Of a DNA stretch of 13,429 nt, positions 3,027 to 12,564 are shown piece by piece (the first letter of the stretch is position 1; every line of letters starts with the position of its first letter). Both the position numbers and the translations under genes were made by a program. Under the pieces are notes generated by a model that was not told the DNA's origin, made no database searches, and was given only the letters and a program-made list of their open reading frames with translations. The stretch is from Candidatus Jordarchaeales archaeon (GTDB taxonomy: Archaea > Asgardarchaeota > Jordiarchaeia > Jordiarchaeales > Freyrarchaeaceae), in the NCBI GenBank assembly GCA_038858525.1, contig JAWCFL010000031.1, forward strand, positions 1,427 through 14,855, in the 5' to 3' direction.

Positions 3027-3377
3027 AAACCTGACCACCATCACGTTGAAGTCTCCTCTAACAAAATAAATGTTTCTTAAACTAGACATATGTAATACAA
3101 TTGTTCATTTAACAGCGCACTTAAAGATCACCAATCGTATTGTAATGTGACGCTTTGCAGTAAACATGTACCTGTCAAAACTGCGTGGAAATCATCGATC
3201 AAATATACATTAAACATATGTCAAACTGAACGGTTATTATTTTTAAAAATTAAAAAACAAATGTCTAATCTAATGTCGCAAAAAAATACAATTGAATCGA
3301 AAAAATCCAAAAAAGCATATATATGTCTGAATAGAAGAGGACTTGTAAAAATTAGGAATCCGGGAATAGGTGATCAT
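3027..3377. promoter_or_regulatory. AT-rich divergent promoter region between lrp and glnA with repeated short palindromes
   Basis: 351 bp non-coding. ACATATGT occurs at 3086-3093 and 3214-3221, AATACAATTG at 3094-3103 and 3285-3294, CATATATATG at 3316-3325, and SD AGGTGAT at 3368-3374. Confidence 0.5.
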
Positions 3378-4724
3378 TTGAGTAAGAGCGTTTTAGAGGA
3401 AGCTAAGGAAAACGCCCTAAAGGCTGCAAGGAAGAATGATGTTGACCTAGTTCTTCTCGGATTCGTTGACATTCTGGGAACGCCTAAGACCTGCACGGTG
3501 CCAGCTAGAAAGTTCGAGGACGCCCTTAACGAAGGAGTTGGCTTCGACGGCTCCTCTATAGAAGGATTCGTCAGAATATATGAGAGCGACATGCGTCTCA
3601 TACCAGACCCAACATCGTTCCGCATCCTCTCAAGAGTAACCATGGACAAGAAAGTGGCAATGGTTTTCTGTAACGTTTACATGCCTGAAGGAAAACCCTT
3701 CGAGGGAGACCCCAGATACATTCTCAAGAGAAACTTAGAAGAAGCGGGTAAGATGGGCTTCTCCTACTACGTTGGACCAGAACTAGAGTTCTTCCTATTC
3801 AAGGCTGAAAATGGTGTGGTTCCCGAGCCGCAGGATCGAGGAGGATACTTCGACCTGGCTCCACTAGACCAAGCTTTTAACGTCAGAGCCGAGGCAATGC
3901 AGGCTTTACAGGAGATGGGTATAGAGGTAGAAATGGGCCACCACGAAGTATCCCCGGGGCAGCACGAAATAGACTTCAGGTATGGGGACGCCCTAAACAT
4001 AGCGGACGCCGTTATAATATACAAATTTGTCATAAAGTCCGTGGCACGGAAGCACGGGCTTTTCGCGTCATTTATGCCGAAGCCCATTTTCGGCATAAAC
4101 GGGTCAGGCATGCACGTCCACCAAAGCCTCTGGAGCGGTGGGGAAAACGCCTTCTTCAACCCGAACGACAAGTACCACCTGTCAGACGTAGCCTACCACT
4201 TCATAGGGGGACAACTCAAATATATCAAGGACATAATACTCGTACTAGCACCAACCGTAAACTCGTACAAGAGGCTCGTTCCAGGATATGAGGCGCCAGT
4301 CTATATAAGCTGGGCTAGACGCAACAGGTCAGCCCTAATACGCGTCCCCGAGTACTTCATAGGTCGAGGAAAATCAGTGAGGGCTGAGCTGAGGTGCCCC
4401 GACCCGTCATGCAACCCATACCTAGCCTTCTCAGCAATGCTAAAAGCGGGACTTGAAGGAATAAAACAAAAAATAGACCCGCCAGAACCAGTCGAAGAAG
4501 ACATATACCATTTCGACGACGCAAAGCTTAAGGAGCTCTACATAGACACGCTGCCAGGATCCTTGGGAGAAGCAATAGAGTACGCTTCGAAGAGCAAACT
4601 GCTAAGAGAAGCACTCGGAGACCACGCCTACACTAAGTACCTAGAAGCCAAGAAAAACGAATGGGAAGAATTCAGAATGACAGTCACAGAATGGGAATTA
4701 AAAAAGTACCTCCCGATACTATAA
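3378..4724 (+). CDS. glnA: Glutamine synthetase type I (GSI-alpha-like, 448 aa)
   Basis: Motifs FDGSSIEGF, ESDM, GPELEFFLF, HHEVSPGQHEIDF, FMPKPIFGINGSGMHVHQSL, NSYKRLVPGYEAP, NRSALIRVP, ELRCPDPSCNPYLA. Start reassigned to in-frame TTG 3378 behind AGGTGAT, which gives a typical GSI length. Confidence 0.97.
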   Translation: MSKSVLEEAKENALKAARKNDVDLVLLGFVDILGTPKTCTVPARKFEDALNEGVGFDGSSIEGFVRIYESDMRLIPDPTSFRILSRVTMDKKVAMVFCNVYMPEGKPFEGDPRYILKRNLEEAGKMGFSYYVGPELEFFLFKAENGVVPEPQDRGGYFDLAPLDQAFNVRAEAMQALQEMGIEVEMGHHEVSPGQHEIDFRYGDALNIADAVIIYKFVIKSVARKHGLFASFMPKPIFGINGSGMHVHQSLWSGGENAFFNPNDKYHLSDVAYHFIGGQLKYIKDIILVLAPTVNSYKRLVPGYEAPVYISWARRNRSALIRVPEYFIGRGKSVRAELRCPDPSCNPYLAFSAMLKAGLEGIKQKIDPPEPVEEDIYHFDDAKLKELYIDTLPGSLGEAIEYASKSKLLREALGDHAYTKYLEAKKNEWEEFRMTVTEWELKKYLPIL

Positions 4725-7344: not shown

Positions 7345-8616
7345 CTAAATCCTCCTGAAGCTTGCTCCGATTCTTGCTAGGTCGTCGAGGAAGCCGGGGT
7401 AGGATACATCCACAGATTCCTCGCCGGATACTAGAGTCTCTCCCTCCGCCGCCAGACCTGCAACCACGAGCGCCATAAACACTCTGTGATCTCCATGCGC
7501 GTCCACAGCTCCTCCCTTGACTTTTCCTCCCCTTATAACGAGCCCATCTCTCCTCTCCTCGACATCAACTCCCATCTTTGAGAGTTCAGCCGTCATCACT
7601 GATATTCTGTCACTTTCCTTGAACCTCACATGCTCAGCGTTGAATATCCTCGTTTCTCCCTCGGCAAAAGCCCCTAGAACAGAGACTACAGGTAACAGGT
7701 CGGGTGTGTCCCCACAGTCTACGTTAACCCCAGTCAGCCCTCCGCCCCCTCTAACCCTAACCCACTTCTCACCCACGTCGACATCGCATCCCATTTCTCT
7801 CAGAACTCTTATGATCTTCTTGTCACCCTGAGGTGAATCAGCATCCAAGTTTGTTACTGTCACGTCCGAGTTTGTGATGGCGGCAGCCGCTAGGATAAAC
7901 GAAGCTGACGAAAAGTCTCCGGGGACAAGGAACCTTGTAGGCTTATACCTCTCTCTTCTAGTGTGGAAGGCTCTCTCCTCTCTTTCAACTCTAACACCGA
8001 ATGCCTCCATTACTTCTATGGTTATGTCCACGTATGGCTTAGACTTAAGCTCCGACGTCAAAAATATGCTCGTATCATTCTCAGCGGCAGGAGATACAAC
8101 TAGGAGAGCGGAAATGAACTGCGAGCTCATATCCCCTCTAATAAACGCCTCGCCGCCGCGAACTCCCCCTCCCTTAACGATTATAGGAGGCGTGCCATCA
8201 CCCTTAGTTGACCAGCACTCTACTCCAAGCTGATGGAGGGCTTCGAGAAGTGGCCCCATAGGCCTCCTCCTTATCGATTCATCTCCAGTTAGCACAGTGA
8301 ACCCGGGGGCTAGGGCCGAAACTGCTGTGAGAATCCTGATCGTTGTGCCCGAATTGTCCACGTTTATAACGTCGTCCGGTGTCCTCAAAGCCTCACAGCC
8401 CTCAATAACCCACCTTTCCTCTCTTCTCGTAGCCCTAGCACCCAGAGCAATGCACCCTCTGAAGGTAGCCATAGTGTCCCTGCTTTCCAGAGGCCTCAAT
8501 ATTTCTGATGACCCATCGGCGAGGGACGCTAAGACAGCTGCCCTATGCGTGTAGCTCTTGGATGGCGGCGCCTCCACACGCCCCTCAAGCCTGCATCCCC
8601 CTGCCACCTTTATCAT
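7345..8616 (-). CDS. aroA: EPSP synthase (3-phosphoshikimate 1-carboxyvinyltransferase)
   Basis: Motifs PPSKSYTHRA, NSGTTIR, RRRPM, SSQFISALL, VPGDFSSA, RFKESDRI, DHRVFM, SYPGF. ATG 8616 overlaps the aroK stop (ATGA); the ORF track's 8631 start is less likely. Confidence 0.96.
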   Translation of the reverse strand: MIKVAGGCRLEGRVEAPPSKSYTHRAAVLASLADGSSEILRPLESRDTMATFRGCIALGARATRREERWVIEGCEALRTPDDVINVDNSGTTIRILTAVSALAPGFTVLTGDESIRRRPMGPLLEALHQLGVECWSTKGDGTPPIIVKGGGVRGGEAFIRGDMSSQFISALLVVSPAAENDTSIFLTSELKSKPYVDITIEVMEAFGVRVEREERAFHTRRERYKPTRFLVPGDFSSASFILAAAAITNSDVTVTNLDADSPQGDKKIIRVLREMGCDVDVGEKWVRVRGGGGLTGVNVDCGDTPDLLPVVSVLGAFAEGETRIFNAEHVRFKESDRISVMTAELSKMGVDVEERRDGLVIRGGKVKGGAVDAHGDHRVFMALVVAGLAAEGETLVSGEESVDVSYPGFLDDLARIGASFRRI

Positions 8617-9491
8617 GGTTCCCCTCTCCAAACAGAAACCTGCGCCTTCTTGTTATTTACATCAGCCAACATGACGTTTCCCTCAAACTGGCTCCAAGCA
8701 TCAACCACATCATCCATTTTCTCAGGCGGAACCAGGGCGACTGTGGCTGGTCCTGTTCCCGAAAGCCCCGCCGCCACCGCCCCTGCCTCAAGCGCCCTCA
8801 CGGCAGCCTCAGGGCTAAGCCCGAGAGAGGCAGAGTAAGCCAGCCCATTGAGAGTCATAGCCCTCAAATAGTCCCCTCTCAACGCGAGCTCCAGGGCAGC
8901 CTCAACCAAGCTTCTCATGGCCTTCATGCGTCTAACGTTAATACCACTCTTGCGTATCTTCTCGGAGGGAACCAGTATCACCACCTTAAACTCCTCGGGA
9001 AAGTACTCCATGCGCAGTATACTCCTCTTTTCATTATCTGTCACAACGACTCCTCCAAAATATGATGCGCATGCGTCGTCAAAGGCTCCCGTTACAGTCA
9101 CCCCTGCCTCTATGGCGGCCTCAACACCCAATAAAACTGCGTCCACATCGTCCATTTTTTTACCTAGCGCTGCAAGTGTCGCGAGCACCACAGCGTTAGC
9201 CGCGGCACTACTACTTTTAAGTCCCCTCGAAACCGGAATGTTTGACTCAGTTATAACCCTCGCACCGTACTCGGAAACGTTAAACTTTTCCAGCACTTTT
9301 CTCACAGCTACCCTTATCAGCTTCGTGTCCTCCTCCGGGTCATTGAGTATTCTGCCCTCCACCACCCCCGCCTCATCCGTCAATTCCACTCTTGCTCTCG
9401 TCCACAAATCAACGCCGAACGCCGAGCCCTTACCACACGCTATAGCGTTAACAATTGTTCCCGCACCGTGCACCACAGCTTCCCCTATCAC
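8613..9491 (-). CDS. aroK: Archaeal shikimate kinase (GHMP kinase family)
   Basis: GAGTIVNAIACGKGSAFG N-terminus, GHMP motif SNIPVSRGLKSSSAAANA, VTVTGAFDDACAS, GLSGTGPA. The preferred start is GTG 9491 behind GGGGGG; ATG 9515 is an alternative. Confidence 0.93.
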   Translation of the reverse strand: MIGEAVVHGAGTIVNAIACGKGSAFGVDLWTRARVELTDEAGVVEGRILNDPEEDTKLIRVAVRKVLEKFNVSEYGARVITESNIPVSRGLKSSSAAANAVVLATLAALGKKMDDVDAVLLGVEAAIEAGVTVTGAFDDACASYFGGVVVTDNEKRSILRMEYFPEEFKVVILVPSEKIRKSGINVRRMKAMRSLVEAALELALRGDYLRAMTLNGLAYSASLGLSPEAAVRALEAGAVAAGLSGTGPATVALVPPEKMDDVVDAWSQFEGNVMLADVNNKKAQVSVWRGEP

Positions 9492-10347
9492 TTTCCCCCC
9501 GTCCTGTAAGCCCATCTATGACTGCCCTCCTCATAATGTCCTTAGGCGGGTTCACGCCCGTCCAGAGCTTGAATGCTACCGCCCCTTGATTCACCAGCAT
9601 TCCCACACCATCAATAGTCTTCGCGCCGACACTCCTCGCATCCCTGAGAAGCTTAGTCTCTATCGGGTTATAGACTGCATCAAAAACCGTCAGGCTGCTT
9701 TTCAAGACTTCACGGGGAACGGGGCTATCATCAACATCGGGGTACATGCCGACAGACGTAGCATTGACGAGCAACACGGCATCCTTAAGTTCCCCCTCCA
9801 AAACTTCCCTCCTCAGCCCCCCTCCCCTCACGCTCCAGCCTTTCCTCCTTAGCTCCTCAGCCAGCGCTATAGCCTTAGAGTCAGTCCTATTAAGTAGGAC
9901 GAGCTCCGAAGCTAATGGCGCAAGGGAGTAAGCTATTGCTCTAGCCGCCCCCCCAGCTCCCAAGACGACAACCTTTCCCCCATTAACCTCAACCTTTTCT
10001 TCCTTCAGCGCCTCTAGGCACCCTAACCCATCCGTGTTATAGCCTTTCAGCTCTCCACGCTCTACAACTATGGTGTTAACTGCCCCGATATCCAAAGCGT
10101 TTTCATCAACCCAGTCCAGAAGAGGCATCACTGAGACCTTGTGCGGTATAGTTACGTTGACCCCTCTCAGGTTAAGCGCTCTCACTCCCTCAACGGCTTT
10201 TCTAAGCATGTCCCCACTAACCCTGAAGGGAACGTAAACATAGTCCAGTTTCAGGTGCTCGAAGGCAGCATTGTGCATTCTTGGAGAAAGGCTGTGCTCT
10301 ACTGGGTCCCCTATTATGCCGACGACCCTCGTGCCTCCTCCTATCAA
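9448..10347 (-). CDS. aroE: Shikimate dehydrogenase
   Basis: Motifs GIIGDPVEHSLSP, NVTIPHK, GAVNT, GYNTDG, LGAGGAARA, NRT, NATSVGM, DAVYNP, GMLVNQG. The likely start is TTG 10347, because the ORF track's start overlaps spt5. The 3' end overlaps aroK by 44 nt. Confidence 0.95.
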   Translation of the reverse strand: MIGGGTRVVGIIGDPVEHSLSPRMHNAAFEHLKLDYVYVPFRVSGDMLRKAVEGVRALNLRGVNVTIPHKVSVMPLLDWVDENALDIGAVNTIVVERGELKGYNTDGLGCLEALKEEKVEVNGGKVVVLGAGGAARAIAYSLAPLASELVLLNRTDSKAIALAEELRRKGWSVRGGGLRREVLEGELKDAVLLVNATSVGMYPDVDDSPVPREVLKSSLTVFDAVYNPIETKLLRDARSVGAKTIDGVGMLVNQGAVAFKLWTGVNPPKDIMRRAVIDGLTGRGESDRGSCGARCGNNC

Positions 10348-10378
10348 CCCCTGAATCCCCCGTAATCCCTCCTTTACT

Positions 10379-10864
10379 TTACTCCTCTTCCCCTTCTTCA
10401 CCTCGCCTCCCCACAAGCTTGACGTAGTCAGCGTGAACCTTTATCGGGATAGGGTTAGGCGACTCTATAAGCTCTAAAACTACCTCTTCCTTACTGGTGT
10501 CAACTCTTACTATTGTTGCTTTCTCCCCTTTGAATGGCCCCCTAATTATTTCAACGACGTCGCCGGCACTGATCATGCTAACTTGGCTTTTGACGGTTAT
10601 GAAAGGCTCTATGTCATCCAGCTTCACCCTACCGCTAACCTGCCCCCTCACGTGAGGTATGCCAGCAGTCGCCGTTAGAACATCCTTAAGACTGCCCGCC
10701 TCTATAAAAATATAGCCGTTAAGCGTCTCCGGGACCAGAATGGCTTTGATGTCAATGTCCTTCGAACCCTTAACCCTCCGCTCTATGATCTCCGCTACAG
10801 CCTTCTCCTGCCCAATCGTAGTTCTTATAGCAAAAATGTTTCCACCAACAGACAACCCGCCCAT
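10379..10864 (-). CDS. spt5: Transcription elongation factor Spt5 (archaeal NusG)
   Basis: NGN domain (IFAIRTTIGQE...GYIFIEA...IPHVRG) and KOW motif GDVVEIIRGPFKGEKA; located directly downstream of secE. Confidence 0.95.
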   Translation of the reverse strand: MGGLSVGGNIFAIRTTIGQEKAVAEIIERRVKGSKDIDIKAILVPETLNGYIFIEAGSLKDVLTATAGIPHVRGQVSGRVKLDDIEPFITVKSQVSMISAGDVVEIIRGPFKGEKATIVRVDTSKEEVVLELIESPNPIPIKVHADYVKLVGRRGEEGEEE

Positions 10865-10867
10865 CTC

Positions 10868-11158
10868 CTAAGAAGGCGATAAGCCGATCATTGGAAGAAA
10901 ACCATTAACTAACACAAACTTGATTAAGAAAGCCAAGCCGCCTACTATCAAGATCCCAACTATACTTATCCTTACAATCAGCCACATTTCCTCCCTCGTC
11001 GGGTACCTCGCAGCTCTGAATACTCTCACGGTCCTCCTGACCACCCTCGACTGAGAAACCCACTTCACTATCCTTGACTCTGCAGCCTTCCTCACCAAGC
11101 GGTTTCCCCTAACTCTGCCAAGGACAGCTCTCACCTTACCGAGTCGCGTTTTGAACAT
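10868..11158 (-). CDS. secE: Protein translocase subunit SecE / Sec61-gamma
   Basis: RVFRAARYPTREEM hinge followed by a single TM helix (LIVRISIVGILIVGGLAFLIKFVL), in the conserved ftsZ-secE-spt5 order. ATG at 11158; the exact start is uncertain. Confidence 0.85.
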   Translation of the reverse strand: MFKTRLGKVRAVLGRVRGNRLVRKAAESRIVKWVSQSRVVRRTVRVFRAARYPTREEMWLIVRISIVGILIVGGLAFLIKFVLVNGFLPMIGLSPS

Positions 11159-11401
11159 CAAAACCCATCCTCTACATGCTCGACTTCAGAGAAACATTTA
11201 ATCTCCTATTGAAATATTTTTCCCAGAAAACAAAGAAACAACCTTTTATATCCAAAAAAGCGCGAAAACGCGAAAAGAACAATTTAAAATAAACGACCAA
11301 AACTGCCAAGCTTCAAGTCGAGACCGCTTGTTTTTCGTGAAACGCAAATAGAGTTGTCTGTGGAACTTGAGTGGATGATTGACTCTTCAGTGTTCTGCGC
11401 G

Positions 11402-12463
11402 TTAAATTTTTGTCAGTTGAAGTTCTGGTGGCACAACCCATTCCCCTGAAAGTATCTGCTCTACTTGGCGGTAAGTTACTCCACTTATAACTAGTGAAAC
11501 GCGTATCTTGTCCTTTAGGGCTGGATCTATGATGGCGCCCCATATTATCTCTCCATCAGGGGATATTCGTTCAGACATGCTCCTTATTGCCGCCTCTGCC
11601 TCGTGAAGTTTTAAGTCCTGGTCCCCCGTGACGTTTACTAGTGCCCCTGTGGCGCACGAGAGGTCGATGTCGAGGAGTGGGTTGTTCAGCGCATCCTCCA
11701 CGGCTTTCTCCTCTCTCCTCTCGCCGCTCGCCTCTCCGAGAGAGATGAGCGCCGCGCCCCCCTTCTTAATTATAGTTCTTACGTTTGCAAGGTCGACGTT
11801 AACTAGACCCGGCTTGGTTATCATCTCTGATACAGCCTTAACGCCCCTAACAAGTATCTCGTCAGCCAGCCTGAAGGCTTGGATCAAGGAGAGGTTTGGA
11901 GCGACCTCAAGAAGCTTCTCGTTTGGCACAACTATAACTGTATCCGAAACTCTGGAGAGCTTCTTGAGCCCCGAGGATGCACTTCTCCACCTCCTTGCAC
12001 CTTCAGCTATGAAGGGCAGTGTGCACACTGCAACGGTTAATGCTCCCGCTTTCCTCGCTGCTTCAGCTATTACTGGGGATGCACCCGTCCCTGTTCCGCC
12101 ACCCAGGCCGCACGCCACAAACACTAGGTCGCCCGAAATCATCTTCTTTATCTCTTCGATACTCTCTTTCGCCGCAGCCTCACCAACATCCGGGTCGTTT
12201 CCAGCACCAAGCCCCTTCGTCGTCTCCTTCCCTATCAGTAGCTTCTTATCAGCCTTAATATTTAACAAGTCTTGAGCATCAGTATTGACTGCAATGAGCT
12301 CAACGCCCTCTACACCAACGCTGGAAAGTCTATTGATGGCGTTATTTCCAGCACCACCTACCCCAAAAACCTGAATCTTAGGCATGTAACTTAAAATCTC
12401 GTCGAACTCACTCTTTTCATCCTGTTGATTTTCCTGCAAAATCTCTTCTATGATGCTCTCCAT
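11402..12463 (-). CDS. ftsZ: FtsZ, archaeal FtsZ1-type, with non-canonical T7 loop
   Basis: Motifs VFGVGGAGNN, NTDAQ, GLGAG, tubulin signature GLGGGTGTG, PFxxEGxRR, LLDID, IIWGA. The N-terminal extension MESIIEE and the secE-spt5 neighbourhood match FtsZ1. Strong SD GAGAGGAGGG. Confidence 0.97.
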   Translation of the reverse strand: MESIIEEILQENQQDEKSEFDEILSYMPKIQVFGVGGAGNNAINRLSSVGVEGVELIAVNTDAQDLLNIKADKKLLIGKETTKGLGAGNDPDVGEAAAKESIEEIKKMISGDLVFVACGLGGGTGTGASPVIAEAARKAGALTVAVCTLPFIAEGARRWRSASSGLKKLSRVSDTVIVVPNEKLLEVAPNLSLIQAFRLADEILVRGVKAVSEMITKPGLVNVDLANVRTIIKKGGAALISLGEASGERREEKAVEDALNNPLLDIDLSCATGALVNVTGDQDLKLHEAEAAIRSMSERISPDGEIIWGAIIDPALKDKIRVSLVISGVTYRQVEQILSGEWVVPPELQLTKI

Positions 12464-12481
12464 AGGAACACCCTCCTCTCA

Positions 12482-12506
12482 TTAACGTAAAAGGCTTAAC
12501 GTAAAA
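12482..12506. promoter_or_regulatory. Perfect 11-bp direct repeat in the ftsZ / dtdA divergent region
   Basis: TTAACGTAAAA at 12482-12492 and 12496-12506 (14-bp period), directly upstream of the ftsZ SD. Confidence 0.5.
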
Positions 12507-12564
12507 CTTTTCATGTTACCTAGGTTATACACATGTGACCCAGCTAGGAAAGCGTGGTGCACAG

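Follow-up and report, generated by a model that had tools for sequence, protein, structure and literature searches.

We describe an archaeal ftsZ1 gene in which the second aspartate of the catalytic T7 loop is replaced by asparagine (Asn227), a new natural variant within a known protein family. The gene lies in a stretch of 13,429 nucleotides, called the window below, from a Candidatus Jordarchaeales archaeon, and is most likely a genuine FtsZ1 of hot-spring Jordarchaeales (Asgard), functional and presumably expressed. Asn227 probably arose by one G-to-A transition in a single genus; it was kept through species-level divergence and is reversible. In FtsZ research the T7 aspartates are treated as indispensable, and mutating them is the standard route to GTPase-dead, hyperstable filaments. 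Our literature search found no report of a natural FtsZ with Asn in the T7 loop, and none on the FtsZ of Jordarchaeia. On balance, we lean towards a working FtsZ1 whose GTP turnover would be reduced and not abolished, and which may act as a longer-lived assembly scaffold beside the catalytic FtsZ2 and SepF; strong purifying selection, reversibility and bacterial precedents all point to such a protein.

Table 1. Features of the ftsZ1 locus, in window coordinates
Feature	Position	Strand	Basis and remarks
ftsZ1, 353 aa, complete ORF with stop	11402-12463	minus	TIGR00065, PF00091 and PF12327
T7 loop core N222-V-D224-L-A-N227 (canonical N-x-D-F-A-D)	11783-11800	minus	Direct reading and alignment to 1W5A/1FSZ; codons N222 AAC 11800-11798, D224 GAC 11794-11792, L225 CTT 11791-11789, A226 GCA 11788-11786, N227 AAC 11785-11783
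Codon AAC, Asn227, second T7 aspartate replaced	11783-11785	minus	Codon alignment
Codon AGG, Arg157	11993-11995	minus	Sequence alignment; all FtsZ1 of the order that bear Asp have Lys here
Codon of V343	11435-11437	minus	Covaries with 157 and 227
GGAGG, Shine-Dalgarno-like, 8 nt 5' of ATG	12472-12476	minus	Conserved among relatives
Upstream element ATGAAAAGTTTTACGT, 16 nt	12499-12514	minus	Kept by all relatives in the genus and the family (7 orthologous upstream regions compared)
secE, 3' of ftsZ1	10868-11161	minus	PF00584 weak, below curated cut-off; same position occupied in relatives
spt5/nusG (NGN and KOW)	10379-10864	minus	Domain search; completes the ftsZ1-secE-spt5 order typical of archaeal FtsZ1

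The protein is clearly an FtsZ: it scores 402.1 bits against the TIGR00065 ftsZ equivalog profile (cut-off 295.2) and contains both FtsZ domains (PF00091 Tubulin, 152 bits; PF12327 FtsZ_C, 107.5 bits). Its best solved relative in a phmmer search is M. jannaschii FtsZ homolog 1 (PDB 1W5A/1FSZ, E ~6e-107), bacterial FtsZ structures being more distant, and its identity to a Pyrococcus 'FtsZ 1' is 53%. The best matches are FtsZ1 proteins, the ftsZ1-secE-spt5 gene order is present and a separate FtsZ2 is encoded elsewhere, which places the protein in the archaeal FtsZ1 group and not among FtsZ2 or CetZ proteins. An earlier, sequence-only reading had described intact GTP-binding motifs in a full-length gene with a strong Shine-Dalgarno sequence, and this description was confirmed: GGAGNN, NTD, GLGAGN, GGGTGTG, PF..EG..R and PNE were all read directly and aligned to 1FSZ, and the ORF and its GGAGG are as given in Table 1.

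The same reading had placed Asn, encoded by AAC at 11785-11783, at the catalytic T7 aspartate. Direct reading and the phmmer alignment to M. jannaschii FtsZ1 agree with this: GLVNVDLANV in the query stands over GLINVDFADV, so that N227 occupies the position of the second T7 aspartate (M. jannaschii D238, E. coli D212, S. aureus D213). Over the 318-residue alignment with M. jannaschii FtsZ1 (PDB 1FSZ, 1W58-1W5B, 2VAP), all nucleotide-binding loops and the T7 N-x-D are common to both proteins, whereas D238 and the Phe before Ala have become Asn227 and Leu. The last acid of the T7 hydrolysis motif, in the form N-x-D-x-x-[D/E] (PMC12583498), is thus Asn227 in the window protein, which is filed as FtsZ despite this deviation on account of its overall homology. 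Given that Asp-bearing relatives use GAC or GAT in the codon alignment, the replacement amounts to a single G/A transition. The adjacent F-to-L change had been read as a sign of a drifting loop, but Leu225 is invariant among the FtsZ1 proteins of the order, in both its families (NVDLAD is found in 15 FtsZ1 clusters across them), and is therefore an old lineage trait, without drift.

The asparagine is found well beyond the window. The identical FtsZ1 protein is present on 13 public contigs (NCBI, JGI, ENA and Logan), and Asn is seen in all nine distinct sequences, which form three 90%-identity clusters, the window's own and two at 90% and 84% identity; none of the nine variants carries a frameshift. 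Synonymous codon differences flank AAC between lineages (CTA/CTG, GTT/GTC, GTC/GTT, CTT/CTC, GTA/GTG, AGA/AGG), which indicates that the Asn state persisted through real divergence (dS ~1-2). The stretch is also present in hot-spring metagenome runs of at least six studies, from 2017 to 2024, and both haplotypes, Asn and Asp, were recovered again in JGI metagenome contigs. Although the difference is a single G/A, an identical protein from four sources, the same residue in three diverged lineages and recovery across at least six studies leave a sequencing or assembly artefact at that base with practically no credibility. Among the matches listed for the pattern K-P-G-L-V-N-V-D-[FL]-A-[DN] in metagenomes, most were unrelated NVDFAD FtsZ genes; the matches listed also held one Asp-type sister contig and one Asn-type contig, which matches the window at 100% identity along 3.3 kb and may be of the same population.

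Among archaea, the substitution is rare. Asp occupies the second T7 position in 117 of the 120 nearest archaeal FtsZ clusters, the three Asn clusters being the only exceptions, and a pattern search of 400 Asgard genomes placed an Asn-type T7 in FtsZ genes of the window's genome and one congener only. Five other Asgard matches to that pattern were discarded: none lies in an ORF with a tubulin signature, and the reversed pattern, used as a control, gave 8. As to whether orthologues in the same gene context would show the asparagine fixed in a clade, the alignment gave a divided answer: it is fixed in three species-level lineages, but the closest relative of the window has Asp.

To follow the trait, a codon-based maximum likelihood gene tree was built with codon 227 removed beforehand. 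Asp is ancestral on this tree, both families of the order having NVDLAD, and the Asn sequences (four rows: the window, P0003 and G002/P0005) form, inside a single Jordarchaeales genus, a clade that also encloses G003, which bears Asp. The window and G003 are sisters (support 99/98), so that at least two changes at site 227 are needed; a single clade of Asn-bearers is rejected (AU test, p = 0.0013). The FtsZ1 proteins of the two sister species are about 90% identical, and G003 shows no other change in the T7 loop. Nucleotide identity to the window across the locus follows the order of the tree (G003 81%, P0003 79%, G002 73%, P0006 71%, G004 68%). Recombination as the source of the sister's Asp haplotype was considered and rejected, given that no segment was closer to outside Asp lineages in sliding-window identity; short gene-conversion tracts are possible. 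A further member of the genus, G001 (73% complete), yielded an FtsZ2 gene only, its FtsZ1 being undetected most likely for reason of an incomplete assembly. P0003 may be the FtsZ1 lineage of G001, since both show similar dS to the window.

Two other sites change together with 227. The genus-level clade is marked by 13 amino-acid substitutions, of which G003 has 10, remaining ancestral-like at K157, D227 and I343; coincidence at three or more sites has a probability of about 0.03. Every Asn227 sequence carries R157 together with V343, whereas the Asp sequences of the family all have K157 and either I or F at position 343. The neighbour of residue 157 is R158, which corresponds to R143 in S. aureus and R169 in M. 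jannaschii. Since this arginine resembles an arginine finger in S. aureus and contacts, through water, the second T7 aspartate of the adjacent subunit (PMC8936486), the pairing of K157 with D227 and of R157 with N227 is mechanistically suggestive. We tried K157R as a general compensator of the D-to-N change and rejected it: Asp-type archaeal FtsZ1 have R in 48 clusters and K in 36, and Asn-type bacterial FtsZ have K in 16 and R in 12. As K and R vary freely in both types elsewhere, we treat the 157/227 coupling as an unexplained local pattern and not as compensation. Epistasis, a long-lived two-haplotype polymorphism and short gene-conversion tracts are all possible sources of the three-site covariation.

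The gene is not decaying, and is under strong purifying selection. Within the genus, pairwise dN/dS of ftsZ1 is 0.05-0.08 (0.01-0.05 for Asn-bearing pairs), and in the same genomes that of FtsZ2 is 0.02-0.05. Measured as dN to the outgroup P0006, amino-acid change has not been faster in the Asn lineages (0.111, 0.108 and 0.133) than in their Asp sister (0.119).

What, then, could the substitution do? Within a filament, the lower subunit would owe its complete GTP site to the T7 loop of the subunit above. The first aspartate (D224) would position the attacking water, and the second, replaced here by N227, would normally hold that water and be linked through water to the arginine-finger-like R158 of helix H5. 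Asn227 should keep the geometry and the hydrogen bonds, and lose the negative charge. GTP binding and polymerisation would then be expected, with hydrolysis proceeding at a lower rate and subunits turning over more slowly, in an enzyme that is not dead. FtsZ1 would serve as a longer-lived scaffold for ring assembly while a fully catalytic FtsZ2 and SepF stand beside it, and a high growth temperature would perhaps offset the loss of rate.

Laboratory mutants provide precedents for these expectations. The sequence-only reading had stated that this residue is the trans-acting second T7 aspartate and that substituting it gives stable filaments, and E. coli FtsZ D212N, which is GTPase-defective and forms stable filaments, bears this out (PMC3573117; bioRxiv 2024.12.31.629942). 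It is the same substitution at the same position, in a protein that binds GTP and polymerises; however, the E. coli mutant is engineered, whereas the Asn of the window FtsZ1 occurs naturally and is fixed in several species, in a gene that purifying selection maintains. In S. aureus, the first T7 aspartate (D210) swings and positions the attacking water, while D213 helps to hold it, maintains the conformation of the loop and contacts R143 of H5 in the lower subunit through a water molecule (PMC8936486). There, D213N abolishes assembly and does not stabilise filaments (PMC8936486), in contrast with the window FtsZ1, which carries the same residue at the same position under natural selection and presumably assembles. 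H. volcanii, like the window's genome, has an archaeal FtsZ1/FtsZ2 pair and SepF, and its FtsZ1 needs the T7 aspartate: D250A, a change of one of the two T7 aspartates to Ala, does not complement and is dominant-negative (bioRxiv 2020.06.04.133736), although this is an Asp-to-Ala and not an Asp-to-Asn change. From the outcomes of S. aureus D213N and H. volcanii D250A, the effect of losing the carboxylate depends on the protein, and could exceed what we propose. Finally, Odinarchaeota are Asgard archaea with the same dual FtsZ and SepF, and their FtsZ1 assembles into single protofilaments, the T7 loop being inserted at the interface; their FtsZs are reported with the canonical N-x-D-x-x-[D/E], from which the window FtsZ1 deviates (PMC12583498).

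Bacteria offer natural precedents. A census of one genome per prokaryote species with the pattern G-L-[IVM]-N-x-D-[FL]-A-N-[VI] gave 45 loci, 40 of them in ORFs with a tubulin signature (21 in Chloroflexota, 11 in Patescibacteria and 8 in scattered bacteria). When ten of these bacterial Asn-type FtsZ were tested, nine passed the TIGR00065 cut-off. A Pfam tubulin/FtsZ search found the Asn type to be the only FtsZ in six of ten assemblies, for which completeness is not given (Paceibacterota, Saccharibacteria, Opitutia, a deltaproteobacterium, Clostridiales and Nitrospirae); in the other four, three Chloroflexota and one Thermoleophilia, an Asp-type paralogue accompanies it. The Asp-to-Asn change is thus rare but recurrent in nature. 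These proteins resemble the window FtsZ1 in being bona fide FtsZ with a natural Asp-to-Asn change, and differ from it in being bacterial, of independent origin and mostly in keeping Phe. In one Chloroflexia genome with an Asn-type FtsZ (L095/L096, G042:C3:1095409-1095892), the Asp-type paralogue is split into adjacent frames of 149 and 169 aa, either through a frameshift in the assembly or because this canonical copy is broken.

A strong GTPase defect is made less likely by the return of the sister species to Asp and by these natural bacterial FtsZ with the same Asn, some of them the sole copy in the assembly. For the same reasons, namely the Asp reversal in the closest relative and the six of ten bacterial assemblies (completeness not given) with Asn in their sole FtsZ, a substitution of little effect also fits. 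In such a near-neutral scenario, D224, R158 and bound cations would carry catalysis and Asn227 would still hydrogen-bond the water; the rate would be about normal, and Asp and Asn would alternate by transitions. The unchanged rest of the loop in the Asp-bearing relative agrees with it, as does a dN in the Asn lineages that is overall no greater than that of their Asp sister, and in S. aureus the water-positioning residue is D210 and not D213 (PMC8936486). On the other hand, Asp is otherwise invariant among the nearest archaeal clusters, with no other FtsZ lacking it in the 400 Asgard genomes; D-to-N was harmful in both bacterial proteins tested, to GTPase in E. coli and to assembly in S. aureus; and neutral flipping does not predict the covariation of sites 157 and 343 with 227 (P ~0.03). 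We consider near-neutrality possible but doubtful. If the variant proved kinetically normal, it would be a lineage-specific oddity only.

The window's genome (2.09 Mb, 92.7% complete) contains exactly two genes of the tubulin family, and no third was found in it. A search for ftsZ2, sepF and ESCRT-III/Vps4 genes, which the sequence-only reading had called for, recovered all of them: the FtsZ2-type protein (G000:C1) has an intact T7 loop (S-L-I-N-L-D-Y-A-D-V), a complete GTP pocket and the C-terminal sequence DDLGIPKL, and SepF, a Snf7/ESCRT-III gene and Vps4 are also encoded. Just downstream of ftsZ2, in convergent orientation, a 256-aa ORF (L001 2667-3437, minus strand) has a GKGGVGKT P-loop, which suggests an ATPase of the MinD/ParA/CooC type, a candidate positioning factor.

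In the T7 loop of beta-tubulin, Lys stands where alpha-tubulin has the catalytic Glu254. The window's genome shares with this system the natural lack of the trans-acting catalytic acid in one of two superfamily paralogues; tubulin, however, forms an obligate heterodimer in which the GTP at one site is never hydrolysed. A loosely similar arrangement, in which FtsZ2 would supply its catalytic T7 loop to FtsZ1-bound GTP at mixed interfaces, agrees with the intact NLDYAD of the even more conserved FtsZ2, and with the Chloroflexota and Thermoleophilia genomes in which an Asp-type paralogue is kept beside the Asn type. We nevertheless judge it improbable. The two proteins are not a complementary pair, in which each paralogue would miss what the other keeps: FtsZ2 also has the complete GTP pocket, and FtsZ1 is without one carboxylate only. 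Moreover, the sister species with an Asp-type FtsZ1 has the same FtsZ2, and in H. volcanii the roles are distinct, FtsZ1 in ring assembly and FtsZ2 in constriction, with no copolymer described (bioRxiv 2020.06.04.133736). We would give just as little credit to a bolder version, in which Asn227/Arg157 and Asp227/Lys157 would be co-adapted settings of the active site, a switch of turnover speed, with the GTP of the slow form hydrolysed mainly at mixed interfaces with FtsZ2. If true, it would represent an early and reversible division of labour of the alpha/beta-tubulin kind, in the archaeal lineage closest to eukaryotes.

It had also been proposed that this FtsZ1 could be leaving its division role. 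On such a reading, ESCRT-III and Vps4, or FtsZ2 alone, would take over, and the active site would be starting to decay. ESCRT-III and Vps4 are indeed present, and amino-acid change in FtsZ1 is about 1.5 times that in FtsZ2. However, the dN/dS of 0.05-0.08, the intact remaining motifs, the absence of frameshifts in nine variants, an amino-acid change no faster than in the Asp sister, the conserved gene order and upstream element, and the regain of Asp in one species all argue against it, and ESCRT genes are general in Asgard archaea with canonical FtsZ1. The selection data thus largely refute a release from division, which we hold to be very unlikely.

The interest of the working but slower FtsZ1 that we favour is moderate, and lies mainly in the ready-made Asp and Asn versions found in sister species. 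These are matched natural pairs, about 90% identical in FtsZ1, differing at the T7 residue and both under strong purifying selection, in an Asgard host that also has FtsZ2, SepF, ESCRT-III and Vps4. They permit a clean test of the need of archaeal FtsZ1 for GTPase activity, and of whether a slow FtsZ1 can be a scaffold while FtsZ2 constricts. The repeated tolerance of Asn in bacteria, sometimes in the sole FtsZ found, tempers the textbook view of the T7 aspartates.

Around the gene, the ftsZ-secE-spt5 order recurs in all the relatives compared, the named database relatives being 'Candidatus Jordarchaeales' and 'Freyarchaeota', both Asgard archaea. The divergent gene upstream of ftsZ1 is dtdA (D-aminoacyl-tRNA deacylase), and the conserved element ATGAAAAGTTTTACGT between them is, by inference, probably a BRE/TATA promoter. 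Two copies of the motif TTTTACGTTAA lie 8 nt apart, 5' of ftsZ1, in the ftsZ-dtdA intergenic region (12481-12507); the distal copy, within ATGAAAAGTTTTACGT, is the only one conserved in relatives, and the proximal copy is species-specific.

Directly 3' of spt5, on the same strand, lies a tightly packed operon for aromatic amino acids (aroE, a GHMP-type shikimate kinase, aroA, aroC, chorismate mutase and tyrA). As delimited mechanically, the shikimate kinase ORF (8613-9515, minus) overlaps aroE (9448-10416, minus) by 68 nt and aroA (7345-8631, minus) by 19 nt, and the true starts of these ORFs are probably internal. At the other end of the window, the Gln-synt_N domain of the glutamine synthetase ORF (3147-4724, plus) is preceded by about 98 residues, which are either an extension of the N terminus or the result of a start called too far upstream; an Lrp/AsnC regulator is divergent upstream of this ORF. 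A 659-aa ORF (524-2503, plus), flanked by a pfkB kinase fragment and the Lrp/AsnC regulator, gave no Pfam match above cut-off; its sole match, a sub-threshold Fez1, suggests a long coiled coil, and the product may belong to the coiled-coil or cytoskeleton-associated proteins of Asgard archaea.
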